Positions 36,933-64,000 are shown, numbered from the stretch's first letter. The stretch: 64,000 nucleotides of DNA from an uncultured Thermoleophilia bacterium (GCA_963715985.1 CAVQSP010000003.1:1-64000), one strand, 5' to 3'. Notes: generated from the letters alone by a model not told the origin. Numbers and translations: made by a program.

Positions 36933-37077
36933 CGTGTGGTGCAGAGGCGGGCGCAGCTTCGCTGTTGCCGGCCGCCGGCACGACGTTGCAGGACACCACG
37001 ACACATGAACAACGGCGTGCGACCGAGACGTGCTCAGTACGGACGGTCGCCGTCGAAGCCGGCGGGGAGGCGACACC

Positions 37078-38535: not shown

Positions 38536-38575
38536 CGCTGCCGGTCGCGAGCGGCCGCCGGCCGGCGGCCGCTCG

Positions 38576-39727: not shown

Positions 39728-39761
39728 CAGGGCCTCCCCGCGCGGATTCGCGCGCGAGCGC

Positions 39762-40992: not shown

Positions 40993-41117
40993 GATGTCTC
41001 TCCTTTGTCCGGCACGGGTGTCGGCCGACCTCCGTTCTCCCACGAGGTGCGGGCGCGGCGGGCCGGTCGACCGGTGGTGAAGGTCAGTCCAGTCCGTCGC
41101 GGTCGCGGGGCACGTCT

Positions 41118-43216: not shown

Positions 43217-43219
43217 CGC

Positions 43220-44140: not shown

Positions 44141-44150
44141 GTAGCCCTCC

Positions 44151-45173: not shown

Positions 45174-45256
45174 CTCGGCCGGCCTCCTGTTCGGTGTTCT
45201 GTCGCGGGGCGAAGCAGGAATACGGTGAGGTCCGGGCTTCTGCTGCAGTATCGAAG

Positions 45257-45294
45257 CGAGGCGCGGCGACCGCTCGAGCGGCCGCCGCGCCTCG
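45257..45294. other. GC-rich inverted repeat between the binding-protein and permease genes (mRNA-stabilising or attenuating hairpin)
   Basis: CGAGGCGCGGCG..CGCCGCGCCTCG near-perfect palindrome. Confidence 0.5.
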
Positions 45295-45304
45295 CACCGA
45301 CTGA

Positions 45305-48383: not shown

Positions 48384-48505
48384 TACAGCATCTCAGCCGT
48401 CTGCCGGAGTCGTCGGTCGCAGAGGGGAGACCAGTAGGGCGGCCGGTGTTCTTCGACGATTCGGAGTGTCACGACACTTCGGACGAAGCAGGGGAGGCAC
48501 GCATC

Positions 48506-49876
48506 GTGATCAGGTATCTCGAGGTGGTCGATCGGGCCATGACAGGGCAGTACCGCAAGGAGATGGACTTCACCATGAAGGTGCTGGTCCCGAAGCTCAA
48601 GCAGTTGGTCGTGAAGCACGGCATCAAGTACGACCCCGACATCCCGGTGCCGTATGACGACGATCTTGCCGACCGCGTGTTCCAGGCGGGATTCGAACTG
48701 TATCGGGACGTCGGGCTGTACTGCCCGGACTCGCAGCGCATCATGAGGTTCACGGAGGAGGAGCTGCTGCAGGCGCTCAAGGACTCCCCGGCCGAGACTG
48801 TCCTCGGGGAGGGCAAGCAGCAGCGCACCCTTGCGCCCCGGCAGCCGGACTCGGACGTCCCGCCGTGGTGCTGGCTCGGCGCCCTCGGCGCCGCGGTCTC
48901 CAACGAGGAGTTCTACTCCAGCATCATGGAGGCCTACGCCACCTACCTGCCTCTGGCCGACTCGATCACCGCGCCGAGCCTGGCGAGCTTCAATGGGCGA
49001 ACGGTGCGGACCGGCACTCCCCTGGAGGTGATCGCCGCGATGCGGGTCACCAGCCTGGGAAAGGACGCCCTGCGCCGGGGCAACCGGCCGGGGCTTCCCA
49101 TCATGAACTCCATTGCCACGGCCGGTTCCGACGTCGCGAAGATCGCCGGCAGCTCCTTCGGGCTGCAGACCTGGGACACGTGGGTCGTCGGCCACACCGC
49201 CGAATTCAAGCTCGGCTTCGAGCGACTCAACGAGATCGCCTGGATCATCGGCACCGGGGGAGGACTCATCGCCGAGTGCGCCCCGATCCTCGGCGGCTAC
49301 TGCGGGGGGCCGGAGGGCGTCGCGGTGGCCAATGCAGCCTACCTTCTCAGCGGCATCATCGCGATGCAGGCCGACGCCTTGCTCACCTTCCCGACCCATT
49401 TCAACCTCGGGTGCACCACCGAACGCTCTGTGATCTGGGCGAAGTCGGTGAGCGTGCAGGCCATGACCCGCAACAGCCACTTCCCCGTCTTCGTGGATCA
49501 CTACACCGCCCACGGCCCCATGACGGAGATGTTCTTCTACGAGAATGCCGCCGACGTGATCGCCTCGGTGGTCTCCGGCGGCCATGTCACCGCCACGGGC
49601 TCCGCCAAAGGCACGCACATGGACCACTTCACGCCCATGGAGCCTCGGTTCTCTGGCGAGGTGGCGCACGGCTCCGCGGGCATGACCCGAGAAGAGGCCA
49701 ACGAGATCGTCAAGCGCCTGCTCGAGCGGTACGAGAGCACGCTGGCCCAGGCCTCCCCCGGGCAGACGTACGAAGAGTGCTGGGACACCCGCCGCAAGGA
49801 GCCGAACCCCGAGTACGTCGAGCTCTACGAGTCGGTGACGAAGGACCTCGCGAGTCTGGGGGTCCGGCTCGTCTGA
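48506..49876 (+). CDS. mtmB: Monomethylamine:corrinoid methyltransferase (MtmB) family protein lacking pyrrolysine
   Basis: DRAMTG, FQAGFEL, GLYCPDSQRIMRFTEEE, PILGGYCGG, GPMTEM, SAKG, TPMEPRF.GEVA and GQTYEECWD match the MtmB pattern. RPGLPI-M-NS has ATG (49103-49105) where MtmB has RPGMGV-O-GP. Confidence 0.88.
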   Translation: MIRYLEVVDRAMTGQYRKEMDFTMKVLVPKLKQLVVKHGIKYDPDIPVPYDDDLADRVFQAGFELYRDVGLYCPDSQRIMRFTEEELLQALKDSPAETVLGEGKQQRTLAPRQPDSDVPPWCWLGALGAAVSNEEFYSSIMEAYATYLPLADSITAPSLASFNGRTVRTGTPLEVIAAMRVTSLGKDALRRGNRPGLPIMNSIATAGSDVAKIAGSSFGLQTWDTWVVGHTAEFKLGFERLNEIAWIIGTGGGLIAECAPILGGYCGGPEGVAVANAAYLLSGIIAMQADALLTFPTHFNLGCTTERSVIWAKSVSVQAMTRNSHFPVFVDHYTAHGPMTEMFFYENAADVIASVVSGGHVTATGSAKGTHMDHFTPMEPRFSGEVAHGSAGMTREEANEIVKRLLERYESTLAQASPGQTYEECWDTRRKEPNPEYVELYESVTKDLASLGVRLV

Positions 49877-49970
49877 GCCCGGCAGACACGGCGGGGCGCC
49901 GGGCCCGGCTGGCGGGCGCGCCGGGTTCGCGTCCGCGGTGGCGAGCACAACTGGCAAGAGGGAGAGTGCG

Positions 49971-50636
49971 ATGGAACGGCTCTTTGCAGAACTCAAGCAA
50001 GCGGTCATCACCGCTGACGAAGGGCTCGCGAGCGAGGCCGCGAGGCAGGTCGTGGCCCAGAGCGACGATCTTCTCGCTGCCGTTGAGCAGGGTCTGTCAG
50101 CGGGGATGACGGTCATCGGACAGGACTTCGAGAGGGGTGAGTGCTTCCTCCCCGAGCTCATCGGCGCCTCCCAGGCGTTCAACGCCGCCATGAAGGTCCT
50201 GGAGCCGGAGATCGACAAGGCCGGTGGAGACTTGAAGCGCCCCGGCGTCGCGGTGGTGGGCACCGTGGCGGGCGACGTGCACAACATCGGCAAGGACATC
50301 TTCGCCATGCTGCTGAAGGTCCGCGGCTTCGAGGTCCACGACCTCGGCGCGGACGTCTCCATGGGGAGCTACGTGGAGGCGGTGGAGGAGGTCGGTGCGG
50401 ACCTGATCGGAATGTCCGCGCTGCTCACGACCACCATGCCGAGCCAGAAAGAGGTCATCGACATGCTCGGCGAACTGGGCATGCGTGACAGGTATGTCGT
50501 CATGGTCGGCGGCGGTCCGGTGTCCCAGCAATGGGCCGACCAGATCGGTGCGGACGGCTACGCCGACACGGCGGAGGAGGGCGCTGAGCTCGCCCTCAAG
50601 CTGGTCGCCGAGAAGAAGGCGAAGACGACCGCTTGA
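49971..50636 (+). CDS. Corrinoid protein (MtmC/MttC-like), copy 3
   Basis: CFLPEL, GTVAGDVHNIGK (DxHxxG), SALLTTT and VGGGP. Confidence 0.92.
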   Translation: MERLFAELKQAVITADEGLASEAARQVVAQSDDLLAAVEQGLSAGMTVIGQDFERGECFLPELIGASQAFNAAMKVLEPEIDKAGGDLKRPGVAVVGTVAGDVHNIGKDIFAMLLKVRGFEVHDLGADVSMGSYVEAVEEVGADLIGMSALLTTTMPSQKEVIDMLGELGMRDRYVVMVGGGPVSQQWADQIGADGYADTAEEGAELALKLVAEKKAKTTA

Positions 50637-50697
50637 ACCGAAGGGAATCACGGGGGTCGGGGCGAGGTGCGCCGGCCCTGGAATCTAGGAGGAAGCG

Positions 50698-52056
50698 ATG
50701 ACAATGACTGAGTTTGGGCCCTATCTCAAGGTGAACGAAGGAGGGCAGCTCGAGATCGAAGGGCTCTCGGTGGTCGACCTCGCAGAACAGTACGGCACAC
50801 CGCTCTTCGTCATCTCGGAGAACACCATCCGGGCCCGCATCCGCCGGATGCAGAAGGCGTTCACCGACCACTACCCCAACGAGATGATCATCTGCGTCGG
50901 CATGAAGGCCCAATGGGGCCTGGCCGTGCGCCGGGTCGTGGTCAAGGAGGGGGCCGGCGGCGACGCCTTCGGTCTGGGTGAGCTGACCGTCGCGATGATG
51001 GCCGGCTCTGACCCGAGGAAGATCGTCCTCAACGGGGCGAACAAGGCCGAGGATGCTCTGCGCGCTGCCATCGACACGGGCATCCTGATCCAGGTCGACC
51101 ACGAGGACGAGCTCGAGGCGGTCGAGAGGCTGGCCGGCGAGATGGGCAAGACGGCCCGGGTGTCACTGCGGATCCGCCTGCCGCTCAACGCCATCGAGGA
51201 GGTCGTCTACGTCGACCCGCGCTACCCCGAAGGCATCAGCCCCACCTACTGGGAGCGGACCTTCAAGTTCGGTCTGGACCCCGAGAACTACTTCGCGGAG
51301 GTCGAGCGGGCCCTGGCGCTGAAGAACATCTCCCTTGAAGGCGTCATGTACCACGGCGGTATCCCGCGTCGCGCGGGGTACTTCCGCGAAGAGACCGAGG
51401 AACTGGTCGACATGATCGGCCAGATCAAGGCGAAGTTCGGGTGGTCACCCCAGTACCTCAACATCGGCGGCGGCTTCGTGCCCGAGCGGGTGGGACAGGA
51501 GATCCCCCCGTCGATCGAGGAGTACGCCGAGGTCATCAGCAAGGCCATCGTCTCCAAGTGCGAGGAGCACGGTCTCCCGGTGCCGGTGCTTCTGGCCGAG
51601 CCGGGACGCTACTGCGTGGACAGCGCAGGCATCTGGGTCGTCAAGGTCGGCAGCCTCAAGGACGACCGCAATCTGGCGAAGAAGAAGTGGGTCTACGTAG
51701 ACGGCAACACCAACGAGATGGGCGACCCCTTCGACCCGTACAATCGCGTCCACCACGTCGTCATCGCCAACGACCCGTACCGGGAGGGCACCGAGGTCGT
51801 CGAGATCGCCGGCCAGACGTGCAACGCGGCGGACGTCCTCGTCAAGGACCGCGAGCTTGCCAAGATGCGGGTGGGCGACACCCTCGCCTTCCTCGAGATG
51901 GGAGCCTACAACGAGGGCTTTGCCTGCCAGTCCAACGCCATCCCCAGGTCGGCCACGGTGATGGTGTGCGACGGGCGCGCGGCGGTCGTTCGGCGCAGAG
52001 AGACCGTGTCGGACGTACTCGCTCGCGAGAGCGTGCCGCCATGGCTGATGACCTGA
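50698..52056 (+). CDS. PLP-dependent fold-type III decarboxylase, divergent diaminopimelate decarboxylase (LysA)-like
   Basis: LAEQYGTPLFV, GMKAQ (PLP Lys), LNGANK, KFG, LNIGGGF, AEPGRY, GQTCNAADV and MGAY. Confidence 0.82.
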   Translation: MTMTEFGPYLKVNEGGQLEIEGLSVVDLAEQYGTPLFVISENTIRARIRRMQKAFTDHYPNEMIICVGMKAQWGLAVRRVVVKEGAGGDAFGLGELTVAMMAGSDPRKIVLNGANKAEDALRAAIDTGILIQVDHEDELEAVERLAGEMGKTARVSLRIRLPLNAIEEVVYVDPRYPEGISPTYWERTFKFGLDPENYFAEVERALALKNISLEGVMYHGGIPRRAGYFREETEELVDMIGQIKAKFGWSPQYLNIGGGFVPERVGQEIPPSIEEYAEVISKAIVSKCEEHGLPVPVLLAEPGRYCVDSAGIWVVKVGSLKDDRNLAKKKWVYVDGNTNEMGDPFDPYNRVHHVVIANDPYREGTEVVEIAGQTCNAADVLVKDRELAKMRVGDTLAFLEMGAYNEGFACQSNAIPRSATVMVCDGRAAVVRRRETVSDVLARESVPPWLMT

Positions 52057-52105
52057 ACGGCTCTTCGCACCTTGTGACGCGTCCGGACAAAAGGAGGCGA
52101 CCGGA

Positions 52106-53573
52106 GTGAAACGTAATGTGCATGCGGGACATCGCATGAGCGGCGGCTTGCGCCTCGAAGTATTCACGCCCGACGAGCTCCAGGACATCCATCTGGGGAC
52201 ACTCGATGTGCTCGAGCGGACCGGCGTCTACGTCGAGAGCGAGGAGGCCCAGGAGATCTTCGCGGGGGCCGGCGCGCGGGTCGGGGCCGACGGCGTCGTG
52301 AGGATCCCCGGGTCACGTCGTCGAGGAGGCCATCCGCTCCACGCCGTCGCAGCTTGCGATGTACGGACGGGATCCCAAGCACGACGTCGTCCTCGAGGAC
52401 GGACGCGTCAACTTCCTCAACTTCGGTGAGGCCGTCTTCGTCGCCGATCCCGAGACCGGAGAGCTGCGGCAGACGTTGAAGCAGGACGTCGCCGACATCT
52501 CGCGGGTCATCGACGCGCTGCCCCAGATCGACGCGATCCTGCGGCCGGCCGGCGCCCACGACGTGCCCGAGCCGGTGGGCCCGCTCCACAACGCTGAGGC
52601 GATCTTCACGAACTGCTCCAAACACGCCATCATCGGCCCCCTGACCGGCTACCTGGCGCGGCGCATGCGCGAGATGGCGGCGGCGCTCGTGGGCGGGGCG
52701 GAGCAGCTGCGTGAGCGCCCCATCTTCTCCTACGTGGTCTGTCCGGTCAGCCCTCTCAATCTGCCGAAGGACGTGAGCGACGTCATCGTCGAGGGCGCGC
52801 GCGAGGCGGTGCCGACATCCGTCGTGTCGATGGCGCTGGCGGGGGGCTCCGCGCCTGTGAACCTGGCGGGCGCAGTCATCGTGCACAACGCAGAGGTGCT
52901 CTCCGCCCTCACCCTGGCGCAGCTGACCAGGCGTGGCGCCTCGATGATCTACGGGAGCTCGACGACCGCGCTCGACCTGCGCTACGCGGTCGCCACGGTG
53001 GGCAGCCCCGAGTGCGGGCTCATCAACGCCGCCATCGCCTGCCTCGCGCGTCACTACGGCCTGCCCAGCTGGGTCGCCGGCTTGTAGGGCGACTCCAAAG
53101 TGGTGGACGCGCAGTCCGGCCACGAGAAGACCCTCACCGGTCTGCTGACGGCGTTGGCAGGTGCCAACCTCATCTACGGTGCGGGGATGCTCGACACGGC
53201 CATGACCATCGATTACGGCCAGCTGGTGCTGGACGCCGAGTTCGCCGAGCTCATCAAGTGCTGCGTCAACGGGGTGCCCGTGAACGACGAGACGCTCTCG
53301 CTCGACGTGATCAACGACGTCGGCCCCTTCCACGACTTCCTCAGCCACGCCGACACCCTGCGCCACATGCGCATCCAGTCGCAGCCCATGTTGGTCGACC
53401 GCCGCGTCCGCGAGGAGTGGAGCGCCAACGGGTCGACGGACATCGCCGAGCGCGCCACCGCCAGGGCCCGCGAGATCCTTGCGACGCACGTGCCCACGCC
53501 GCTCCCGGAGGGTGCGGCGGAGGAGATGCGGGCCATCATCAGGAACGCGGAGCGCGAACTCGGGTGCACGTGA
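52106..53573 (+). CDS. mttB: Pyrrolysine-containing MttB-family methyltransferase, copy 1 (in-frame TAG 53085-53087; +1 frameshift near 52312)
   Basis: ORFs 52106, 52359..53087 and 53100..53573 form one MttB. LPSWVAGL-TAG-GDSKVVDAQSGHEKT aligns to the Pyl motif AGT-O-SDAK..AGHEK. Confidence 0.9.
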
Positions 53574-53693: not shown

Positions 53694-54386
53694 TCAGGCC
53701 GCCGACCCGGCTCCCGGGTGGGTGGCTCGGCCGGCGCCGCCGGCCGACTCGGTGGCCGCGCCCGCGGTCCTTCGCGTCGAGATCCACACGTCGAGGATCG
53801 ACTCGAGCATGTCGTAGGCCTCGCCGGTGTCGAGTTTCTCCGGGTCCATCGCATATTGCACAGCCAGCCCGTCGACCACGGCGATGATCAGCCTCGTGAA
53901 ACCGCGCATCTCGCGCGGTGTCAGGTCGGGGAGGTCGTCCGCGAGGATGCGGCTGTAGGTCTCCATGGCCCACTCGTACAGTGCCGTGATGCGCGCGTTG
54001 TGGCGTTCGTCGCGCAGGATCTCCGGGAGCAACTCGAGGAACGCGAGGTAGAGATCCGTGTTCTCGCTCATCTGCTGCTTGGCCTCGCGGAACGCGTGGA
54101 GCCGCTCCTCGGCCGGTCGCGCGACGAGCCCCGGGAGGACGAGGCCGATGTTCTCGTGGACCCAGGTGTCCACCACCGCCTCCATGAGGCCGGCCTTGTT
54201 CCCGAAGTAGTACCGGATCGCCGTCTTGTCGAGCCCGCAGGCGCTCGAGACACTCTCCAGGGTGAGCGATGGATAGCCCTTCTGGATGAGGAGGCGCAGC
54301 GACTCTTCGACGATCCGCTGTGCGGTCGGGGGCAGCTCGGCGAGAGGATCACGCTGAGCGACTGAGGCTTTGGCTCCCACTCCCAC
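53694..54386 (-). CDS. TetR/AcrR-family regulator
   Basis: DPLAELPPTAQRI..GYPSLTLESVSSACGLDKTAIRYYFGNKAGL; AAGGAGG RBS. Confidence 0.87.
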   Translation of the reverse strand: MGVGAKASVAQRDPLAELPPTAQRIVEESLRLLIQKGYPSLTLESVSSACGLDKTAIRYYFGNKAGLMEAVVDTWVHENIGLVLPGLVARPAEERLHAFREAKQQMSENTDLYLAFLELLPEILRDERHNARITALYEWAMETYSRILADDLPDLTPREMRGFTRLIIAVVDGLAVQYAMDPEKLDTGEAYDMLESILDVWISTRRTAGAATESAGGAGRATHPGAGSAA

Positions 54387-54453
54387 TCGTCCTCCTTGGC
54401 GGATGGCTGGCACGGGAGCGCCTGATGCCGGAGATCGGCGGGTGCTTCCGCGA

Positions 54454-54515
54454 TTGACACGGTCCCAAGTGATGCTACAGTCTACACCCACCGGTGGGTG
54501 GCCACCACGCGGTGG
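54454..54515 (+). promoter_or_regulatory. prpE-mttB operon promoter TTGACA-N16-TACAGT with perfect palindrome CACCCACCGGTGGGTG
   Basis: -35 at 54454-54459, extended -10 at 54476-54481, palindrome at 54485-54500 and a weaker second site at 54503-54515. Confidence 0.72.
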
Positions 54516-54553
54516 ACTCAATCGTCTCGCCGCCGCCCGATGCGAGGAGCTAC

Positions 54554-56458
54554 ATGAGTGAAGCATACGAAGCGGCCTACCAGGCGTCCATCCTGCGGCC
54601 GGAGAGCTTCTGGGCCGAGGCCGCCGAGGGCATCGAGTGGACGCGGCGCTGGGACGCGGTCCTCGACCGCAGCGCCGCTCCCGCCCCGCGCTGGTTCGCC
54701 GGCGGCAGCCTCAACACCTGCTACAACGCCATCGACCGTCACGTCCTCGCCGGCAGGGGGGAGGCCGCCGCGGTCATCTACGACAGCCCGGTGACGGGCG
54801 CGAACGCGCGCCTCACCTACGCCGAGCTCCTCGAGGAGGTCTCGCGCTTCGCCGGCGGCCTGCGCGATCTTGGCGTGGAGCGCGGCGACCGTGTCGTCAT
54901 CTACATGCCGATGATCCCGCAGACGCTCGTCGCCATGCTCGCCTGCGCGCGCCTCGGCGCGGTGCACTCCGTGGTCTTCGGCGGTTTCGCCGCGCAGGAG
55001 CTCGCGACCCGCGTCGACGACGCCGAGCCCAAGGTCATCGTGTGGGCCTCGTGTGGGATCGAGGGCAGCCGGGTCATCCCCTACAAGCCGCTGCTCGACC
55101 GCGCCATTGAGCTGGCGCAGCGGCCGCCGGCGGCTACGGTCGTCTTCCAGCGCGAGCAGCAGCTCGCGCCGCTCGTCGACGGCAGGGACCACGACTGGGG
55201 CGAACTGAGGCGGGCCGCGCCGGCCGCCTGCGTCTCCGTCGCGGCCACGGACCCCCTCTACATCCTCTATACGTCGGGGACGACCGGCAAACCGAAGGGC
55301 GTGGTCCGGGACCACGGCGGCCACGCCGTCGCCCTGCTCTGGTCGATGAGGAACCTCTACGACGTCGGCCCCGGCGAGGTCTTTTGGGCCGCCTCCGACA
55401 TGGGTTGGGTGGTCGGCCACTCCTACATCGTCTACGCGCCGCTGCTGGCCGGCGCCACCACCGTCGTCTACGAAGGCAAGCCGGTGGGCACGCCGGACGC
55501 CGGCGCCTTCTGGCGCGTCATCGCCGAGCACCGCGTCAAGGCGCTCTTCACGGCCCCGACCGCGATCCGCGCGATCCGCCGCGAGGACCCGCAGGGCGAG
55601 CTCGTGAAGAGCTACGACACGAGCTCCCTGGAGGCGCTCTACCTGGCCGGGGAGCGTCTCGACCCCGACACCTACCACTGGGCCGGCGAGGTCCTCGGCG
55701 TGCCGGTGGTCGACCACTGGTGGCAGACCGAGACCGGCTGGGCGATCTGCGCCAACTGCCGGGGCCTCGAGGAGCTGCCCATGAAGGCGGGCTCGCCGAC
55801 AAGGCCGGTGCCGGGCTTCGACCTCGTGGTGCTGGATGCGTCCGGCGAGCCGCTGGAGCCGCCGGCGGAAGGCACCCTGGCCTTGCGCCTGCCCTTGCCC
55901 CCCGGCGCGCTGCCGACGCTGTGGCACAACGACGAGGGCTTCGTGACCACCTATCTGGCGCCGTTCCCCGGCTACTACTTCACCGGCGACAGCGGCAGCA
56001 TCGACGCGGACGGCTACGTCTTCGTCATGGGTCGCGTCGACGACATCATCAACGTCGCCGGTCACCGGCTTTCGACGGGGCGCATGGAGGAGGTCCTCGC
56101 CGCCCATCCTGACGTCGCCGAGTGCGCCGTGGTCGGTGCTGCCGACGACCTCAAGGGTCAGATCCCGCTGGGGCTCGTGGTGCTCAAGGAGGGAGCCGCC
56201 CGCGAGCCCGAGGATGTCACCGCCGAGCTCGTGCGTATGGTGCGCGAGCAGGTCGGGCCGGTGGCTGCCTTCAAGCGCGCGCTGGTCGTCCAGCGTCTGC
56301 CCAAGACGCGCTCCGGCAAGATCCTGCGCAGCGCCATCCGCAAGCTCGCCGACGGCGTCGAGTTCGCGACGCCGGCGACCATCGAGGACGCCTCCGTCAT
56401 CGAGGACCTGCGGATCGCCTTGGGTCATGACCAGCGCACGCAATCGCCGACCGGCTGA
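54554..56458 (+). CDS. prpE: Propionyl-CoA synthetase / short-chain acyl-CoA ligase
   Basis: LNTCYNAIDRH, HSVVFGGFA, YTSGTTGKPKG, VDHWWQTETG, YFTGD, NVAGHRLSTG and PKTRSGKILR. Confidence 0.9.
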   Translation: MSEAYEAAYQASILRPESFWAEAAEGIEWTRRWDAVLDRSAAPAPRWFAGGSLNTCYNAIDRHVLAGRGEAAAVIYDSPVTGANARLTYAELLEEVSRFAGGLRDLGVERGDRVVIYMPMIPQTLVAMLACARLGAVHSVVFGGFAAQELATRVDDAEPKVIVWASCGIEGSRVIPYKPLLDRAIELAQRPPAATVVFQREQQLAPLVDGRDHDWGELRRAAPAACVSVAATDPLYILYTSGTTGKPKGVVRDHGGHAVALLWSMRNLYDVGPGEVFWAASDMGWVVGHSYIVYAPLLAGATTVVYEGKPVGTPDAGAFWRVIAEHRVKALFTAPTAIRAIRREDPQGELVKSYDTSSLEALYLAGERLDPDTYHWAGEVLGVPVVDHWWQTETGWAICANCRGLEELPMKAGSPTRPVPGFDLVVLDASGEPLEPPAEGTLALRLPLPPGALPTLWHNDEGFVTTYLAPFPGYYFTGDSGSIDADGYVFVMGRVDDIINVAGHRLSTGRMEEVLAAHPDVAECAVVGAADDLKGQIPLGLVVLKEGAAREPEDVTAELVRMVREQVGPVAAFKRALVVQRLPKTRSGKILRSAIRKLADGVEFATPATIEDASVIEDLRIALGHDQRTQSPTG

Positions 56459-56508
56459 CAGGCACGAGCCCGGCCCCCTCACGGGCCCCCGAGGAAGGTA
56501 GGACAGCA

Positions 56509-57981
56509 GTGAAACGCAATCTCCATGCCGGCCGCCGCCGCAGCGGCGGCCTGCGCCTCGACGTCTTCACCGACGACGAGCTCTCCGACATCCATCTGGC
56601 GACGCTGGACGTGCTCGAGCGCACCGGGGTCGGCGTCGAGAGCGAGGAGGCGCAGGAGATCTTCGCCGGGGCCGGCGCCCGCGTGCAGAGCGACGGGATC
56701 GTCAAGATCCCCGGCCACGTCGTCGAGGAGGCGATCGCCAGCACTCCGTCGCGGCTCGTCTGCTACGGGCGCGACCCCAAGCACGACATCGTGCTCGAGG
56801 ACGGGCGCGTCGGCTTCACCAACTTCGGCGAGGGCATCCAGGTCATCGATCCCTACACCGGCGAGCTGCGCCAGACCGGCAAGCAGGACGTCGCCGACTG
56901 CTCGCGGATCATCGACGCACTGCCCGAGATCGACGTCATCGAGCGGCCGCTGGGGGCGCACGACGTGCCGGAGGCCACCGGTCCGCTTCACAACGCCGAC
57001 GCCATCATGACCAACTGCTCGAAGCACGCCTTCATCGGCCCCCTGACCGGCTACCTCGCGAGCCGCATGCGCGAGATGGCAGCCGCCATCGCCGGCGGCG
57101 CCGAGAAGCTGCGCGAGCGGCCGATCCTCTCGTACGTGATCTGTCCGGTGGCGCCGCTCGGGATGATCCGCGACGTCTGCGACATCATCATCGACGGCGC
57201 CCGCAACCACGTGCCTATCACGCCGGTCTCGATCGTCATGGCCGGCGGCTCCTCGCCCATGAACCTGGCGGGCGCCGTGGTCACGACCAACGCCGAGATC
57301 CTGGGCTGCCTGACGCTGGCCCAGCTGACCCGCAAGGGGACGCCGGTCGTGTACGGAAGCTCATCGTCCTCGATGGACCTCCGCTACGCCTCCGCCTCCG
57401 TGGGCAGCCCCGAGTGCGGCCTCATCAACGCCGCCATCGCCTGTATGGCGCGCGCCTACCTCCTGCCCAGCTGGGTCGCGGGGCAGTAGGGCGACTCCAA
57501 AGTGGTGGATGCCCAGTCCGGCCACGAGAAGACCCTCACCGGTCTGCTGACGGCGTTGGCAGGTGCCAACCTCATCTACGGTGCGGGGATGCTCGAGAGC
57601 GGCATGACCATCGATTACGGCCAGCTCGTCATGGACGCCGAGTTCGCGCGTCTCATCAAGTACACGGTCGCCGGCGTGCCGGTCAGCGACGAGACGCTCT
57701 CGCTCGACGTGATCAACGACGTCGGCCCCTTCCACGACTTCCTCAGCCACGCCGACACCCTGCGCCACATGCGCACCCAGAGCCAGCCCACGCTCATCGA
57801 CCGCCGCGTCCGCGAGGAGTGGAGCGCCGACGGTTCGACGACCATCCACGAGCGTGCCACGGCCCGCGCCCGCGAGATCCTCGAGACCCACGTGCCCACG
57901 CCGCTGCCCGAGGGCGCCGCCGCCGAGATGGCCGCCATCATCGCCGACGCAGAGCGGCACCTGGGGGTGACGAAAGCATGA
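56509..57981 (+). CDS. mttB: Pyrrolysine-containing MttB-family methyltransferase, copy 2 (in-frame TAG 57487-57489, codon 327 of 490)
   Basis: ORFs 56509..57489 and 57502..57981 are in the same frame and separated only by TAG-GGC-GAC-TCC-AAA; WVAGQ-O-GDSKVVDAQSGHEK. Confidence 0.95.
57376..57972 (+). repeat. About 600-bp direct repeat, apparently identical to 62409..63005 (3' halves of mttB copies 2 and 3)
   Basis: Constant offset of 5033 nt; sequences matched wherever compared by eye and the translated C-termini are identical up to HLGVT. Confidence 0.85.
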
Positions 57982-59370
57982 ACGACATGACGCACATCGA
58001 GCCCGACCCTGCTCGGGAGCAGCGCATCCGCGACCTCGACCGCGAGTACGTCCTGCACTCCTGGTCCGTGCAGTCGCAGATCAGGCCGCTGCCTGTGGCC
58101 GGCGCCGACGGGCGCTACTTCTGGGACTACGAGGGCAAGCGCTATCTCGACTTCTCGTCTCAGCTCGTCAACGTCAACATCGGGCATCAGCACGCCAAGG
58201 TGGTCGAGGCGATCGTGGAGCAGGCGCGCACGCTCTGCACGATCGCGCCCTCCGTGGCGAACGAGAAGCGCTCGGAGCTCGCCCGGCTGCTGGCCGAAGT
58301 CACGCCGGGCAACCTCAAAGCGTCCTTCTTCACCAACGGCGGCGCGGAGGCCAACGAGAACGCCATCAAGCTCGCCCGCTGGTACACGGGCAGGCAGAAG
58401 ATCATCGCCCGCTACCGCTCGTACCACGGGGCCACGGCCGGCGCCATCGCGCTGACCGGCGACCCCCGTCGCTGGCCCGCCGAGCCGAGCATCCCGGGCG
58501 TGGTGCGCATGTTCGACCCCTACACCTACCGCTGCTCGGCCGGGCGACGGGGCGAGACCGTGGCCGAGCACGTGGCCGCCTGCCCCGTGTGCGCGGGCGG
58601 CCCTCACCTGGAGGAGATCCTCCAGTACGAGGGGCCGCACACGGTGGCCGCGGTGATCCTCGAAACGGTCACCGGCACCAACGGCATCATCGTCCCGCCG
58701 GACGGTTACCTGCAGTCGATGCGCGAGGTGTGCGACCGCCACGGCGTCCTGCTCATCCTCGACGAGGTCATGGCCGGCTTCGGGCGCACCGGCACGCTGG
58801 TTCGCCTGCGACCACTGGGACGTCATGCCCGACATCATGACGGTAGCCAAGGGCATCAACTCAGGCTACGTACCGCTCGGGGCGATGGTCGTCAGCGAGC
58901 CCATCGCCGAGTGGCTGCAGGACAAGTACCTCGCCGGCGGTCTCACGTACAGCGGGCACCCGCTGGCCTGTGCCTCGGCCGTGGCCTCCATCGAGGCGTT
59001 TCGTGAGGAGGGCATCGTCGAGAACGCCGCGGCGATGGGCGACGTCCTGGCGGTCGAGACGGCGGCGCTGGCCGCCCGGCATCCGTCGGTCGGTGAAGTG
59101 CGCGGCCTGGGCCTCTTCTGGGGTCTCGAGCTGGTGCGCGACCGGGAGACGCGCGAGCCCCTGGTGCCCTTCAACGCTGCCGGCGACGCAGCCGCGCCGA
59201 TGGCGCGCCTGGGGAAGGCGGCCATGGAGCGTGGCCTCCTCCTGATGACTCACTTCAACGTCCTCGTGATCTGCCCGCCTCTCACCATCACGCGCGAAGA
59301 GCTCGCGGAGGGTCTGGCCGTGATAGACGAGGTTCTCACGCTCTCCGACCTGGAGTGCGCCCAGCCATGA
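57978..59370 (+). CDS. Class III PLP aminotransferase (omega-amino acid/beta-alanine/taurine:pyruvate type); frameshift near 58797
   Basis: YLDFSSQLVNVNIGH, TNGGAEANENA, RSYHGAT, ILDEVMAGFGRTG, AKGINSGY (PLP Lys) and GLTYSGHP; ATGA overlap with mttB copy 2. Confidence 0.9.
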
Positions 59371-59434
59371 CCGCCCACTCCGCGCGACGAGGGATCAGCA
59401 CAGCACGGGCCCTGGCCCCGACGAAAGGATCGAC

Positions 59435-60934
59435 ATGAGCGTCGCACCCCCTGTGACTTTCAACCTCCTGGAGCCGCCGAAGCAGCACTACGGCGTGCTG
59501 CGCAACTTCATCGGTGGCAAGTGGGTGGACGTCGAGACCGACCGCGTCGTCGACGTGGACGACCCCGCAAGCGGCAAGGTCATCGCCCAGGTCCCCATCA
59601 GCACCACAGACCAGGTCAACGACGCCATCCAGGCAGCCCAGGACGGCTACCAGACCTGGCGCCGGACGCCCCCGGGGGACCGCGGCCGCTTCATGTTCGA
59701 GATCCGTGCGGCGATGCAGCGGCACGCGGAGGAGCTGTCCCGCCTGGTCACTCAAGAGAACGGCAAGGTCATCGCCGAGGGCCGCGGCGAGGCTATGCGG
59801 ACGATCGAAGCGGTCGAGACCGCCGCCGCCATCACGAGCCTCATGGGCGGCTATCAGCTCGAGGACGGCGCCGCCCGCAACATCGACGAGATGGTCGTGC
59901 GCCAGCCGCTCGGCGTCTGCGCCTGCATCACGCCGTTCAACTTCCCGATCATGATGACCGGCTTCTGGTGGCCTTACGCCATAGCCGCCGGCAACACCTT
60001 CGTGGTGAATCAGTCGAAACAAACGCCTATCACCATCACGCGCGTCTTCGAGATCATCGAGGAAGTGGGCCTTCCCGCCGGCGTCATGAACCTCGTGCAG
60101 GGCGACCGCACCGCCTCCGCGGCCTTCATGGACTCTCCGCAGATCAAGGCGGTCGGCTTCATCGGTTCGACCCCGGTCGCCAAGGAGATCTACCGCCGGG
60201 CCGGCGAGACCGGCAAGCGCTGCGTGGCCAACGGCGGCGCCAAGAACTTCGCCGTGTTCATGCCGGACGCCGACGTCGACCGCAACATGGGCAACCTGAT
60301 CACGAGCTTCTTCGGCTGCACGGGTCAGCGCTGCCTGGCCACCGCGGTGGTGCTGGCGGTCGGCGACGTCTACGACGAGCTCGTCGAGAAGTTCGTGGCC
60401 GCGACGCGGGCACTCAAGGTCGGCCCCGGGCTCGACGAGAGCGTCCACATCGGCCCCGTCATCTCGGCAGCGGCAAACGCCCGCATCCGCGACTACATCC
60501 AGAGCGGCATCGATCAAGGCGCCGAGCTTCTGGTGGACGGGCGCGACGTCGAAGTTCCGGGCTATGAGGGCGGCCACTATGTCGGGCCCACCATCTTCGA
60601 CAACTGCACCCCGGACATGACGATCTGTCAGGACGAGATATTCGGCCCCGTGGCGGCGATCGTGCGCGTCAAGGACCTCGACGAGGCGCTCGCCATCACC
60701 AACGCCTCCCCTTACGGCAATCAGGCCGTGATCTACACGAGCAACGGGGGCCATGCGCGCCGCTTCTGGTACGAGGTCGAGGCCGGAAACATCGGCGTGA
60801 ACATCGGCGTGGCCGCTCCGGTGGCGTATTACCCGTTCGCCGGCATGAAGGACTCACACTACGGCAACGGCTACGCGATGCGCGATTCGTTCGACCTGTT
60901 CACCGAGAAGAAAGTCGTCATCACCCGCTGGTAG
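59435..60934 (+). CDS. mmsA: CoA-acylating (methyl)malonate-semialdehyde dehydrogenase
   Basis: ITPFNFP, FIGSTPVA, GGAKNF, GCTGQRCLA, EIFGPV, YGNQAVIYT, GVNIGVAAP and KVVITRW; TAG stop. Confidence 0.88.
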   Translation: MSVAPPVTFNLLEPPKQHYGVLRNFIGGKWVDVETDRVVDVDDPASGKVIAQVPISTTDQVNDAIQAAQDGYQTWRRTPPGDRGRFMFEIRAAMQRHAEELSRLVTQENGKVIAEGRGEAMRTIEAVETAAAITSLMGGYQLEDGAARNIDEMVVRQPLGVCACITPFNFPIMMTGFWWPYAIAAGNTFVVNQSKQTPITITRVFEIIEEVGLPAGVMNLVQGDRTASAAFMDSPQIKAVGFIGSTPVAKEIYRRAGETGKRCVANGGAKNFAVFMPDADVDRNMGNLITSFFGCTGQRCLATAVVLAVGDVYDELVEKFVAATRALKVGPGLDESVHIGPVISAAANARIRDYIQSGIDQGAELLVDGRDVEVPGYEGGHYVGPTIFDNCTPDMTICQDEIFGPVAAIVRVKDLDEALAITNASPYGNQAVIYTSNGGHARRFWYEVEAGNIGVNIGVAAPVAYYPFAGMKDSHYGNGYAMRDSFDLFTEKKVVITRW

Positions 60935-60991
60935 GACTGGGCGCCGTTCGCCGGCGCCCGATCTCCGCGAGCGCGAGCTGGAGGAGTTTGG

Positions 60992-61348
60992 ATGGACAAG
61001 GACGCGATCCTCATCAAGAGCGGCGACGTCGCCCCCATCGTGCCGCCGAAGCACAGGAACACGGACACCTGGGTCATGGTGCGTCCGGCCACGACGGGCA
61101 ACACGCAGTGCGAGTTCTTCGTCACGGAGATGCGGCAGGGCGGCGGCGCCGACTGGGACACCCACCCGGGCTGCGAGCACATCTACTTCGTGATGGCCGG
61201 CCGCGCCAAGATGTGGGTGGAGGAAGAAGAGTTCGATCTGGAGCCCGGTGACTGTCTCCTGATGCGCGAGGGCGTCCGCCACAAGGTCGATGTGGTCGGC
61301 AGCGAGACCTTTCGCATCGGGGTGGTCTTCGCGCCGGGGCGCGTGTGA
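60992..61348 (+). CDS. Cupin-domain protein
   Basis: THPGCEHIYFVMAG and GVRHKV metal-binding cupin motifs; GGAGGAG RBS. Confidence 0.85.
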   Translation: MDKDAILIKSGDVAPIVPPKHRNTDTWVMVRPATTGNTQCEFFVTEMRQGGGADWDTHPGCEHIYFVMAGRAKMWVEEEEFDLEPGDCLLMREGVRHKVDVVGSETFRIGVVFAPGRV

Positions 61349-61541
61349 AGAGCTGCCGACAGACGCGATGCGCGCGCCGGGCGCTGAGCAAGGGAGCGGG
61401 CGGGACCGCTTGCGAACCGGACGTAACGGTGGTGAGCTTGAGCGAAGCGCGGCAAGGTCCACCGCCGCGGTCGGGCGCTTCAAGCAGCTCACGGGTATGG
61501 CCACCGTCGTCTGACGGGGCTCCGAGGAAGCGAGGACAGCA

Positions 61542-63014
61542 GTGAAACGCAATCTCCATGCCGGCCGCCGCCGCAGCGGCGGCCTGCGCCTCGACGTGTT
61601 CACCGACGACGAGCTCTCCGACATCCATCTCGGCACCCTCGACGTGCTCGAGCGCACCGGGGTCTACGTCGAGAGCGAGGAGGCCCAGGAGATCTTCGCC
61701 GGGGCCGGCGCCCGCGTCGGCGCGGACGGGGTCGTGAGGATCCCCGGCCACGTCGTCGAGGAGGCGATCGCCAGCACGCCCTCGCGGCTCGTCTGCTACG
61801 GCCGCGACCCCAAGCACGACGTCGTGCTCGAGGACGGGCGCGTGGGCTTCACCAACTTCGGCGAGGGCATCAACGTCGTCGACCCCTACACCGGCGAGCT
61901 GCGCCAGACCGTGAAGCAGGACGTCGCCGACTGCTCGCGGATCATCGACGCACTGCCCGAGATCGACGTCATCGAGCGGCCTCTGGGGGCGCACGACGTG
62001 CCCCAGGAGACGCAGCCTCTGCACAACGCCGAGGCGATCCTCACAAGCTGCTCGAAGCACGCCTTCATCGGCCCCATGACCGGCTACCTCGCGAGCCGCA
62101 TGCGCGAGATGGCGGCCGCCATCGCCGGCGGCGCCGAGAAGCTGCGCGAGCGGCCGATCCTCTCGTACATCACGTGTCCCATCAGCCCCCTCAAGATGGT
62201 GCAGGACGTCTGCGACATCGTCATGGAGGGCGCCCGCTCCGGCGTTCCCGTCAACGTCGTGTCCATGGCCATGGCCGGGGCGTCGTCCCCGGTGAACCTG
62301 GCCGGGACGTGCGTGTCACACAACGCCGAAGTGCTCTCCTGCCTCACGCTCGCCCAGCTCACGCAGAAGGGCGCGCCCATGGTCTACGGCAGTTCGACCA
62401 CGGGCATCGACCTCCGCTACGCCTCCGCCTCCGTGGGCAGCCCCGAGTGCGGCCTCATCAACGCCGCCATCGCCTGTATGGCGCGCGCCTACCTCCTGCC
62501 CAGCTGGGTCGCGGGGCAGTAGGGCGACTCCAAAGTGGTGGATGCCCAGTCCGGCCACGAGAAGACCCTCACCGGTCTGCTGACGGCGTTGGCAGGTGCC
62601 AACCTCATCTACGGTGCGGGGATGCTCGAGAGCGGCATGACCATCGATTACGGCCAGCTCGTCATGGACGCCGAGTTCGCGCGTCTCATCAAGTACACGG
62701 TCGCCGGCGTGCCGGTCAGCGACGAGACGCTCTCGCTCGACGTGATCAACGACGTCGGCCCCTTCCACGACTTCCTCAGCCACGCCGACACCCTGCGCCA
62801 CATGCGCACCCAGAGCCAGCCCACGCTCATCGACCGCCGCGTCCGCGAGGAGTGGAGCGCCGACGGTTCGACGACCATCCACGAGCGTGCCACGGCCCGC
62901 GCCCGCGAGATCCTCGAGACCCACGTGCCCACGCCGCTGCCCGAGGGCGCCGCCGCCGAGATGGCCGCCATCATCGCCGACGCAGAGCGGCACCTGGGGG
63001 TGACGGGGACATGA
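61542..63014 (+). CDS. mttB: Pyrrolysine-containing MttB-family methyltransferase, copy 3 (in-frame TAG 62520-62522, codon 327 of 490)
   Basis: ORFs 61542..62522 and 62535..63014 are in the same frame; WVAGQ-O-GDSKVVDAQSGHEK. Confidence 0.95.
62409..63005 (+). repeat. Second copy of the roughly 600-bp direct repeat (see 57376..57972)
   Basis: Apparently identical sequence at offset 5033. Confidence 0.85.
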
Positions 63015-63039
63015 CAGGGCGCCGCGGGAGGCAGGAGAC

Positions 63040-64000
63040 GTGAGGCGCAACGCCGCCACGGAGCGCCGGCCTCTCGTCGGCGTGAGCATGCAGGTGCTGA
63101 GCCAGGACGGCATCGACGACATCCACCTCGCGACGCTCGAGGTCCTGGCGCAGGCAGGAGTGTTCGTCGAATCCGACGATGCCCTGGATGTGCTGGCCGA
63201 CGGCGGCTGCCGGGTGGACAAGGCGACGAAGATGGTGCGCATACCGCCCCACGTCGTCGAGGACGCGGTTCGCTCGGCGCCCCCGACGCTCGTCCTGCAC
63301 GGACGAGACCGCGCACGCGACGTGGTCGTCGAGCGGGGGCGGGGTGTCTTCACGAGCTTCGGCGAGGGCATCTTCGTCATCGACCCCTTCACCGGCGAGC
63401 GCCGCGAGCCGCGCAAGGATGATGTCGCGGCCTCCGCCGCCGCGGTCGATGCCCTCGATGAGCTCGGCATCTGCAACCGTGCGCTCGGCGCCCACGACGT
63501 CCCCCAGGCGGTCGCCGCCCTGCATACGGCCGACGCGATCCTGCGCAACACGACCAAGCACGTCTTTCTCGGCCCGCAGCGCGGCTTCCTCGCGGAGAGT
63601 ATCGTGGGTCTGCAGGCGGTCATCCTGGGGTCCGCGGACGCCGTCCGCGAGCGTCCCCTGGTCACCTTCACCGCGTGCCCCGTGAGCCCACTCAAGCTGG
63701 CCCGTGACTGCTGCGAGGTCATCCTGGTGGCCGCTCGCAGCGGTGTCGGCGTCAACGTGGCCTCCATGGCCATGGCCGGCGGCTCATCGCCGATCACACT
63801 CGCCGGCACGCTGGTGACGCACAATGCCGAGGTGCTGGCCGGCATCACGCTCGCCCAGCTCGCCGAGCGGGGCGCGCCGGTGATCTACGGCAGCGTGAGC
63901 ACCGGCATGGACCTGCGCCTGGCGTCGGCGAGCGTCGGCTCACCCGAGCTCGCCCTCATCACCGCCGCGGTGGCGCAGCTGGCCCAGCACTACCGCCTGC
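63040..64000 (+). CDS. mttB: MttB-family methyltransferase of the same clade, copy 4 (3'-truncated by the window just before the Pyl position)
   Basis: GTG 63040 after AGGAG; frame open to the edge: IHLATLEVLAQAGV, FTSFGEG, CPVSPL, SMAMAGGSSPITLAG, VGSPE and LAQHYRL. Absent from the ORF track because it has no stop in the window. Confidence 0.88.
   Translation, partial: MRRNAATERRPLVGVSMQVLSQDGIDDIHLATLEVLAQAGVFVESDDALDVLADGGCRVDKATKMVRIPPHVVEDAVRSAPPTLVLHGRDRARDVVVERGRGVFTSFGEGIFVIDPFTGERREPRKDDVAASAAAVDALDELGICNRALGAHDVPQAVAALHTADAILRNTTKHVFLGPQRGFLAESIVGLQAVILGSADAVRERPLVTFTACPVSPLKLARDCCEVILVAARSGVGVNVASMAMAGGSSPITLAGTLVTHNAEVLAGITLAQLAERGAPVIYGSVSTGMDLRLASASVGSPELALITAAVAQLAQHYRL

Follow-up and report, generated by a model that had tools for sequence, protein, structure and literature searches.

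The window analysed here, 64,000 nucleotides in length, comes from an uncultured wetland Thermoleophilia (actinobacterium). The operon near its right end is, judged by sequence, one of beta-alanine-type breakdown with authentic Pyl-type mttB genes within it. The original prediction described a co-oriented run of a prpE-like ligase, mttB, class III aminotransferase, (methyl)malonate-semialdehyde dehydrogenase (MMSDH), cupin, mttB, and mttB, and this run is present, on the plus strand throughout. It begins with a PrpE/Acs-family short-chain acyl-CoA ligase (54494..56458) that matches the Pfam ACAS_N, AMP-binding, and AMP-binding_C domains. This is followed by mttB1 (56509..57981, TAG at 57487-57489), a class III omega-aminotransferase (57978..59370, PF00202), a CoA-acylating MMSDH (59435..60934), a small cupin (60992..61348, PF07883), mttB2 (61542..63014, TAG at 62520-62522), and mttB3 (63040..64000, continuing to C3:64506 on contig C3). 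An MDR-type oxidoreductase (C3:64507-65772) lies directly after mttB3. The MMSDH passes its TIGR01722 cut-off (498.1 against 448.5 bits). The cupin is conserved alongside the operon, with 81-88% identity across six relatives, and had no informative match in PDB or Atlas searches. A coding signal (GC3 of 0.84-0.95) spans all genes.

Divergent from the operon, on the minus strand, is a TetR/BetI-like regulator (53694..54566, PF00440 and TetR_C_6). Its counterpart in a relative, genome G064, is 91% identical, and it is also found on the metagenome contigs L166 and L195. Just 5' of prpE is a sigma-70-like promoter match on the plus strand (54454..54481, TTGACA-16-TACAGT, 10 of 12 positions). It is the only such match between 48000 and 64000, where 0.7 would be expected by chance, and is therefore weak evidence.

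Upstream of the run, also on the plus strand, is a module that opens with an MtmB-family gene (48446..49876, PF05369 300.7 bits) and is kept in a second relative, G056. This gene has no TAG and carries Met at the Pyl202 position when aligned with M. barkeri MtmB. Next is a corrinoid (B12-binding) protein gene (49938..50636, PF02310 and PF02607), the sole one near the mttB genes within the window, which scores 203.7 bits with TIGR02370 (cut-off 215.3) and 214.9 bits with MtgC. It is followed by a LysA-like PLP decarboxylase (50698..52056, Pfam Orn_Arg_deC_N, 296.9 bits with TIGR01048, whose cut-off is 297.9) and by a fourth Pyl-type mttB, mttB0 (52106..53573, TAG at 53085-53087), in which the N-terminal ~68 codons are frame-shifted by one extra T near 52310.

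The proposed ATGA coupling of mttB to the aminotransferase is found at the mttB1 stop, which the aminotransferase start at 57978 overlaps. In the window assembly a single additional base near 58794-58797 splits the aminotransferase over two frames, 57978 to ~58796 and then to 59370, and PF00202 matches it in two pieces (profile positions 10-242 and 252-403). The gene is uninterrupted and in a single frame in G064 and on metagenome contig L117, and contigs crossing 58794-58797 are one base shorter in all four public runs examined. The frameshift is confined to the window assembly. The best PDB match of the aminotransferase is 6JIX (E 9e-116), a taurine:2-oxoglutarate aminotransferase, so that any amine substrate named for it is putative.

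The ligase falls below both PrpE equivalog cut-offs (TIGR02316 and NF007815; 711.1 against 827.4 bits and 753.6 against 955 bits) and narrowly passes the acs subfamily model (659.6 against 657 bits). It is filed here as PrpE/Acs-family only, with its putative substrate range left wide. Its best PDB match, at 880 bits, is 5GXD, which we take to be an acrylate/propionate-CoA ligase. Models of acryloyl-CoA reductase and crotonyl-CoA reductase match the MDR reductase weakly.

All four mttB genes exceed the curated equivalog cut-off of 525 bits for TIGR02369 (trimeth_pyl, PF06253 family), with 580.6 bits for mttB0, 680.6 for mttB1, 704.7 for mttB2, and 655.6 for mttB3. The in-frame amber codons claimed for two of these genes are at codon 327 of mttB1 and of mttB2, aligned with Pyl334 of M. 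barkeri MttB, and the TAG of mttB0 also lies at the Pyl position. On this evidence the window mttB genes, except mttB3, are genuine Pyl-type MttB. The genome has TAG decoding capacity, with pylB, pylC, pylD, tRNA-Pyl(CUA), pylSn, and pylSc grouped at C13:551100-560600; the PylB piece, a partial frame, reaches 304.8 of the 348.2 bits that its cut-off requires. The genome, referred to as G000, is a metagenome-assembled genome that is 88.8% complete with 7.3% contamination. It contains 91 MttB-family matches, many of them split copies, and its full-length genes include eight Pyl-mttB and eight Pyl-mtbB. A canonical mtmB-mtbB-mttB cluster is present on contig C14, and genes for RamA-like activases and pterin methyltransferases lie in other parts of the genome.

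The catalytic residues of the window mttB clade are canonical, with Pyl, Tyr357, and Gly107 each present in 8 of 8 rows. Five changes are fixed clade-wide, and all are conservative. The M. barkeri Pyl-MttB/MttC system (PDB 7XCL, 7XCM, and 7XCN) belongs to the same family (367 bits), and its Gly110 and Tyr364, fully conserved among Pyl-MttBs (PMC9842639), are kept in the window enzymes. A corrinoid partner gene is likewise nearby in the window and adjacent in G064. The window enzymes differ from M. barkeri MttB in being bacterial, in presumably passing the methyl group to tetrahydrofolate, in having Glu for Thr111 (as in 32 of 32 Pyl rows examined), and in being encoded inside a C3-catabolism operon that lacks an mtbB neighbour.

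The mttB1 coupled to the aminotransferase forms a derived subtype with the changes S215A, M242I, A243V, H260T, V264I, T286S, and T287S, all at columns where 90% or more of the other Pyl rows agree. One of these is Met249 of M. barkeri MttB, which lines the trimethylamine (TMA) site (PMC9842639). This position is Ile in the mttB1 subtype of G000, G064, and G056. In mttB2 and mttB0 it is Met, as it is in 29 of the 31 remaining rows set as Pyl; one of those 31 (P0117) is actually non-Pyl. By residues, mttB2, which has family-consensus pocket residues, and mttB0 would be trimethylamine-type, and the mttB1 subtype may have a slightly different substrate. Its signature is retained in G000, G064, G056, L117, L121, and L175, spared by gene conversion. 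The last ~580 nucleotides of mttB1 and mttB2 are identical DNA in G000, and the two genes of G064 are identical over nucleotides 1-450 and 900-1350. These identical stretches, with the same modules arranged in differing order across G000, G064, and G056, point to repeat-driven shuffling.

The third mttB of the run is present as predicted and carries no TAG. It has Leu at the Pyl position and Ala at Tyr364, and for that reason it is not classed among the Pyl enzymes. It is 55% identical to the neighbouring Pyl mttB genes, against ~30% for ordinary non-Pyl MttBs, from which it also differs in scoring above the Pyl-family cut-off. Since mttB3 lacks Pyl chemistry, it is expected to act on a quaternary amine, which is most likely where its methyl group comes from. 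MtgB of D. hafniense (PDB 2QNE and 9YCE) shares Leu at the Pyl position in the alignment, and its Arg312 binds carboxylate through a salt bridge (PMC13080624). However, Y97, R312, H348, and F356 of MtgB are E, F, A, and G in mttB3, and across a 13-row mttB3 clade Arg312 is replaced by Phe or Met and His348 by Ala, Phe, or Tyr. The window mttB clade has no Arg or Lys equivalent of Arg312 (Trp322 in 8 of 8 rows), His348 maps to Tyr357 (8 of 8 rows), and no basic residue was gained in the alignment of clade rows.

Beta-alanine and 3-aminoisobutyrate are catabolised by an omega-aminotransferase and a CoA-acylating (methyl)malonate-semialdehyde dehydrogenase. The window resembles this pathway in placing a class III aminotransferase beside a TIGR01722 MMSDH, and differs in that the pair is bracketed by Pyl-methyltransferase genes and that the nearest solved aminotransferase acts on taurine.

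The neighbourhood survey, which the original prediction had set as the test of linkage between the two sets of genes, gave a mixed result. The layout of mttB1 subtype, aminotransferase, and MMSDH also occurs in two other species genomes (G064 and G056) and one metagenome contig (L117). On the other side, the prpE to MMSDH-cupin operon is present in 6 of 53 other congeners, two with mttB and four without any, the latter either with the aminotransferase (G015 and G019) or with prpE, MMSDH, and cupin only (G055 and G046). Among 80 loci with aminotransferase relatives, 78 have no mttB inside 10 kb. Contig L166 carries the regulator, prpE remnants, mttC, mttB, mttB3, and the reductase, while aminotransferase, MMSDH, and cupin are all missing from it. 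On L119 and L175 the same mttB clade occurs as mttB-mttB3-reductase, with aminotransferase and MMSDH absent, and mttB1-subtype genes lack the aminotransferase in L175 and L121. The linkage of mttB to the aminotransferase and MMSDH is facultative.

No MtbB gene was found near any of the eight window-clade mttB genes in G000, G064, and G056, or on ten metagenome contigs, and PF09505 (secondary-amine MtbB) has no match on contig C3. Of the two sister clades, one has an MtbB neighbour at 9 of 11 loci and the other at 7 of 9, and among other metagenome loci the figure is 39 of 70. From these neighbourhoods, the window mttB clade has changed partners, having lost its usual mtbB neighbour.

The best reading, put forward tentatively at a little under an even chance, is a composite operon built by recombination and carrying TMA-type enzymes. 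The operon is real and probably co-transcribed. Recombination among the mttB repeats would have fused two separable units. The first would be a corrinoid methyl-transfer module of TetR/BetI-like regulator, PrpE-like ligase, MttC, Pyl-MttB, Pyl-less MttB3, and MDR-type reductase, with MttC lost from its position in the window genome. The second would be a C3 branch of omega-aminotransferase, MMSDH, and cupin which, going by established family roles, would convert beta-alanine or 3-aminoisobutyrate, via the semialdehyde, into acetyl-CoA or propionyl-CoA. The Pyl enzymes would act like MttB, with the amine lone pair attacking the pyrroline imine of Pyl327, Tyr357 and Gly107 being in place, and the methyl group would pass first to the Co(I) corrinoid protein, then to tetrahydrofolate. 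On the same tentative footing, the methyltransferases would need neither aminotransferase nor MMSDH. Several points count against this composite: the loss of the mtbB partner, the mttB1 signature, RNA-library contigs that bridge the mttB1/aminotransferase, aminotransferase/MMSDH, and MMSDH/cupin junctions, a GABA-type parallel, and the Pyl gene counts, which seem to exceed simple methylamine needs. The parallel is a second, diverse lineage in which a GABA-type aminotransferase (TIGR00700 535-575 bits, cut-off 506.65; mutual identity 62-100%) lies inside Pyl mttB/mtbB clusters at 10 loci.

The same points, gene counts aside, favour the pathway first proposed, as do the ATGA overlap and the layout kept in G064, G056, and L117. 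In that pathway at least the mttB1 subtype would use Pyl chemistry to strip methyl groups from an N,N-dimethyl or N-methyl omega-amino compound (for example, dimethyl-beta-alanine), perhaps after mttB3 had demethylated the quaternary form; the primary amine set free would then be transaminated and the semialdehyde oxidised by MMSDH. We consider it unlikely. Its two halves are each found alone, mttB1-subtype genes occur without the aminotransferase, and prpE, cupin, and reductase are left without a role. Because MtbB is absent from the cluster, the local genes do not cover the predicted stepwise demethylation down to a primary amine. Pyl catalysis beyond simple methylamines gains from the coupling, the derived subtype, and the mtbB loss, and loses by the facultative linkage and the lack of a basic residue at the MtgB site. 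With the halves occurring apart in relatives, a new Pyl substrate is a possibility; given the facultative linkage, Trp at the MtgB site, and no MtbB, the beta-amino-acid route stays hypothetical.

A single parent compound, a quaternary or tertiary amine on a C3 acid or alcohol skeleton (for example, beta-alanine betaine or homocholine), could instead feed both halves. Activated by the ligase, it would yield TMA for the Pyl-MttBs and an acryloyl or malonate-semialdehyde unit for the MDR reductase or MMSDH. Elimination from gamma-butyrobetaine-CoA and homocholine degradation are precedents. PrpE and the MDR reductase flank the methyltransferases even where aminotransferase and MMSDH are missing (L166 and L119), and the closeness of the ligase to 5GXD, the reductase model matches, the TMA-type residues of mttB2 and mttB0, and the BetI-like regulator all fit. 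We nevertheless hold this to be improbable: among the genes identified none is a lyase or an eliminating enzyme, comparison with solved lyases gave no detectable similarity for the cupin, and in L166 and L195 prpE survives only as remnants beside intact methyltransferase genes. No pathway paper on beta-alanine betaine degradation was found in the literature searched, as far as the sources were available.

An assembly chimera or a functionless, decaying locus, which the metagenomic origin, the frameshifts in the aminotransferase and mttB0, the split MttB copies, and the identical repeats inside 5 kb might suggest, is very improbable given the matching order in G064, G056, and L117, all assembled independently, the aminotransferase frameshift missing from the contigs of the public runs, the coding signal across all genes, and rpoB and rpoC each in one open frame.

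Returning to the composite operon, two other systems bear comparison. Actinobacteriota genomes from a thawing permafrost mire express Pyl-encoding mttB and mtbB and share phylum and habitat type with the window organism, and gene calls truncate both genes at the amber codon (PMC10805028). That report differs in assigning the genes to tri- and dimethylamine, and in its available part an aminotransferase/MMSDH link is not described. MtqB of Methanococcoides methylutens Q3c, a non-Pyl MtmB homolog, demethylates tetramethylammonium and choline (PMC13044021). The MtmB-family gene at 48446-49876 is likened to it at the family level, being a non-Pyl homolog beside a corrinoid gene and a Pyl-mttB, and its module differs in including the LysA-like decarboxylase.

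The GC content across 48-64 kb of the window is 0.66-0.72, and the GC3 filter gives one clear coding frame for each gene. Profile searches confirm the run of genes in the original prediction, all on the forward strand. It begins with a PrpE/Acs-family ligase gene (prpE, 54494-56458), followed by mttB1 (56509-57981), a class III aminotransferase gene (from 57978), a gene for a CoA-acylating (methyl)malonate-semialdehyde dehydrogenase (MMSDH, 59435-60934; TIGR01722, 498 bits against a cut-off of 448.5), a gene for a 118-residue cupin (60992-61348), mttB2 (61542-63014), and mttB3, which starts at 63040 and runs past the window end. The ATGA coupling of mttB to the aminotransferase held as well, the aminotransferase ATG overlapping the mttB1 stop. 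mttB1 and mttB2 are each interrupted in frame by one TAG, at codon 327, and in an alignment with the solved M. barkeri enzyme both TAGs fall at Pyl334. mttB3 lacks a TAG and has Leu at the Pyl position and Ala at the Tyr364 position; it still scores 655.6 bits with the Pyl-family model TIGR02369.

A fourth Pyl-type copy, mttB0 (52106-53573), lies upstream of the operon; one extra T shifts the frame of its first ~68 codons. It closes a module (48446-53573) composed of a non-Pyl MtmB homolog (Met at the Pyl202 position), a corrinoid protein, a LysA-like PLP decarboxylase, and mttB0, which the congener genome G056 retains as a unit at 73-88% identity. A non-Pyl MtmB is described in PMC13044021 as demethylating tetramethylammonium and choline; by analogy, an activity of this kind would supply a tertiary amine to the adjoining Pyl-MttB. 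Further upstream (37030-46927) are an amidase, a family S58 (DmpA-type) peptidase, a beta-lactamase-fold protein, and an oligopeptide-type ABC transporter, in whose genes TAG is an ordinary stop. The ~18 kb block to which these genes belong, between the glyoxalase gene and prpE, is absent from a second congener, G064.

The cupin was considered as a DMSP-lyase-like eliminating enzyme and rejected, since no solved structure of that kind matched it, its best solved-structure matches being a glyoxylate-induced protein and generic cupins. An Atlas search with the cupin returned generic cupin clusters only. A scan for promoters and terminators gave one weak promoter-like site, before prpE, and three terminator-like sites; with 0.7 and 3.8 expected, respectively, the transcript is not definable from the scan. 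Contigs from an RNA library match the window at 93-95% identity and span three junctions (mttB1/aminotransferase, aminotransferase/MMSDH, and MMSDH/cupin), with DNA carry-over possible.

The MAG is 4.35 Mb in 22 contigs (88.8% complete, 7.3% contamination), and the runs containing this stretch are labeled wetland and freshwater-sediment metagenomes. pylB, pylC, pylD, pylSn, pylSc, and a tRNA-Pyl with anticodon CTA lie within ~10 kb on contig C13; the genome can therefore decode TAG. The methyltransferase complement is very large. The MttB model matches 91 times, with nine matches above the Pyl-family cut-off and eight of these nine with one TAG. Many MttB-family copies are in pieces (for example, C9:152877-155765 and C12:13840-15808). 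Pyl-type mtbB has eight full-length and three broken copies, and mtmB has two copies with TAG and five non-Pyl homologs, one of which is in two pieces. A canonical mtmB-mtbB-mttB cluster is present at C14:682-698 kb, and genes for RamA-like activases and pterin-binding methyltransferases lie at other sites. According to PMC10805028, Actinobacteriota MAGs of a mire express Pyl-type mttB and mtbB. In the literature searched, pyrrolysine and Thermoleophilia come together in one incidental paper.

Synteny was compared among 54 genomes of the genus. Close MMSDH relatives are present in eight of the 53 other genomes. The arrangement in G064 reads regulator, prpE, mttC, mttB1 (95%), aminotransferase, MMSDH, cupin, mttB2 (97%), mttB3 (94%), and a reductase (an MDR-type oxidoreductase). 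G056 contains prpE, mttB1 (81%), aminotransferase, MMSDH, cupin, and an mttB3-like gene (68%). G015 and G019 have prpE, aminotransferase, MMSDH, and cupin without mttB; G055 and G046 have prpE, MMSDH, and cupin; and G012 and G042 have MMSDH alone, on short contigs. Among the other congeners, only G064 and G056 yielded mttB genes of the window clade (at least 72% identity). The nearest mttB genes after these show 65-71% identity, and none of their 20 loci (19 from other genomes and one own paralog on contig C4) has prpE, the aminotransferase, or the cupin within 10 kb. Likewise, no mttB was found within 10 kb in 78 of 80 loci of aminotransferase relatives (70-100% identity), the other two being the G064 locus and the G019 operon.

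Window-clade members make up 10 of the 80 metagenome contigs fetched with mttB1 as the query. One of them, L117, reads prpE-mttC-mttB1-aminotransferase-MMSDH. L166 has a regulator, prpE remnants only, mttC, mttB, mttB3, and the reductase, and lacks the aminotransferase, MMSDH, and cupin. L195 has prpE remnants, L119 and L175 contain mttB-mttB3-reductase, and L121 has mttB followed by a cupin fragment. The neighborhood survey proposed in the original prediction thus came out both ways: the layout is kept in G064, G056, and L117, but the halves also occur apart (G015, G019, L166). Because each half stands alone in congeners or on metagenome contigs, the methyltransferase half and the C3 half are separable in both directions. 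The same modules occur in differing orders among the window genome (G000), G064, and G056. In G000, mttB1 and mttB2 do not differ over their last ~580 nucleotides; in G064, the two are identical at nucleotides 1-450 and 900-1350 and differ in the center. The mttB repeats probably drive the separation and joining of the halves. The pattern in both pairs (56509-57981 and 61542-63014; L025 7052-8521 and 12035-13504) is one of mosaic gene conversion, with identical flanks around a distinct central ~450 nucleotides that hold a seven-residue signature.

The operon is quite possibly a composite, in which a TMA-type Pyl module has been joined to a separable C3 branch. Even on this ordinary reading, the locus documents a soil and wetland actinobacterial lineage whose Pyl proteome is large, with eight Pyl-mttB and eight Pyl-mtbB of full length and two Pyl-mtmB, and whose genes for it are being shuffled by recombination.

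A quick maximum-likelihood tree built from 60 rows unites the eight window-clade genes (SH-aLRT 100), with the 11-row clade of 71% copies as their sister. Pyl-mtbB stands beside mttB in nine of the 11 loci of that clade and in seven of nine loci of a second sister clade (C4 type). It is found beside none of the eight window-clade genes in G000, G064, and G056, on none of the 10 window-clade metagenome contigs, and at 39 of the 70 other metagenome loci. The recurrent neighbors of the window clade in place of mtbB are mttB3 and the reductase (G000, G064, G056, L119, L166, L175). The quick tree places Pyl-less clades inside the Pyl clade. Repeated loss of Pyl was not upheld, since an AU test (32 versus 28 rows) did not reject a single Pyl clade (p 0.126). 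Many full-length TAG-free relatives from metagenomes (proteins P0022-P0117) are 47-58% identical to mttB1; in these the residue aligned with Pyl is Leu, Trp, Val, His, or Thr.

All eight window-clade rows retain Pyl, Tyr357 (Tyr364 in M. barkeri), and Gly107. The clade has fixed A79T, T170C, L240V, I390V, V470A, and Gln or Leu before Pyl, and no other changes; the comparison set of other Pyl rows, here and in the residue comparisons that follow, included one non-Pyl row, P0117, leaving 24 true ones. Glu at the Thr111 position was discarded as a mark of specificity, being present in 32 of 32 Pyl rows and 13 of 13 mttB3-clade rows. The glycine-betaine-binding residues described for MtgB in PMC13080624 (Y97, R312, H348, and F356) align with E108, W322, Y357, and G365 of the window clade, and none of the 8 window-clade rows, 24 other Pyl rows, and 13 mttB3-clade rows has Arg at the R312 position. 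By analogy only, the comparison speaks against a carboxylate substrate held in the manner of MtgB.

The mttB1 copies of G000, G064, and G056 share S215A, M242I, A243V, H260T, V264I, T286S, and T287S at columns where conservation in the other rows is 90% or more. This signature is also present in L117, L121, and L175, while mttB2 deviates at just two such columns. M242 corresponds to Met249 of M. barkeri, which according to PMC9842639 moves and opens the TMA site; in mttB1 it is Ile.

The pathway originally predicted, acting on N-methylated omega-amino compounds, is unlikely to operate here, the case being put for mttB1 at least. Its wider form, in which Pyl chemistry extends beyond tri-, di-, and monomethylamine, mttB1 demethylates a skeleton-bearing tertiary amine, and the product passes to the coupled omega-aminotransferase and MMSDH, with the same logic in a second lineage, is similarly doubtful. 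On that reading, mttB1 would be a derived MttB subtype, with Ile for Met249 and six other fixed changes.

The second lineage accounts for 10 of the 11 loci with a class III aminotransferase among the 70 other metagenome loci (L126, L133, L136, L137, L144, L146, L147, L162, L186, and L191; GC 46-59%). Its aminotransferases are 62-100% identical to one another and GABA-type in the two scanned (TIGR00700, 535 and 575 bits against 506.65). They are set among non-Pyl mttB, two Pyl-mttB, mttC, a methyl-THF methyltransferase, and Pyl-mtbB, and L137 also contains pylSc. In this lineage, Pyl-methyltransferases are independently associated with an omega-aminotransferase. If the same reading applied, a betaine such as gamma-butyrobetaine would be demethylated stepwise to a transaminable amino acid. 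No publication joining pyrrolysine, mttB, and aminobutyrate was found in the literature searched. The L146 cluster adds a dimethylglycine-dehydrogenase-like DAO+GCV_T protein and a GntR regulator.

To our knowledge, the 22nd amino acid has just three known substrates. A larger tertiary amine as the substrate of any Pyl-MttB paralog would, if true, widen Pyl catalysis. Amber-interrupted mttB genes of wetland metagenomes, now counted as trimethylamine consumers competing with methanogens, would then be read differently. The locus offers objects for such a test: two sibling enzymes differing at seven near-invariant positions, an adjoining Pyl-less sibling, and natural deletion variants.

That a single parent compound yields both TMA and the C3 unit is also improbable, and a small share of the probability falls to none of the explanations considered. 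A search for beta-alanine betaine, degradation, and trimethylamine found no pathway publication by title or abstract.

It is very improbable that the locus is an artefact or in decay. The frame shift in the aminotransferase is private to the G000 assembly. One extra base near 58794-58797 splits the gene into two frames; the ortholog is in a single frame in G064 and L117, and contigs crossing the site (six) are one base shorter in four of four runs examined. Three bridging pieces, among the matches listed, have one gap each. The shift is either an error or a strain mutation. rpoB and rpoC, the sole two genes checked for the genome-wide frameshift rate, are both intact.

Past the window end, a family-5 solute-binding protein gene (L003 3096-4920; C3:66096-67920) is in two overlapping frames. 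The split recurs in G064, G056, and a paralog; possible explanations are a frameshift common to all of them, a systematic error of sequencing, and a frame-calling artefact. In the window, matches to two more non-Pyl MttB-family genes (7435-8833 and 24817-26209) each come as two adjoining pieces, a pattern suggestive of frame breaks.
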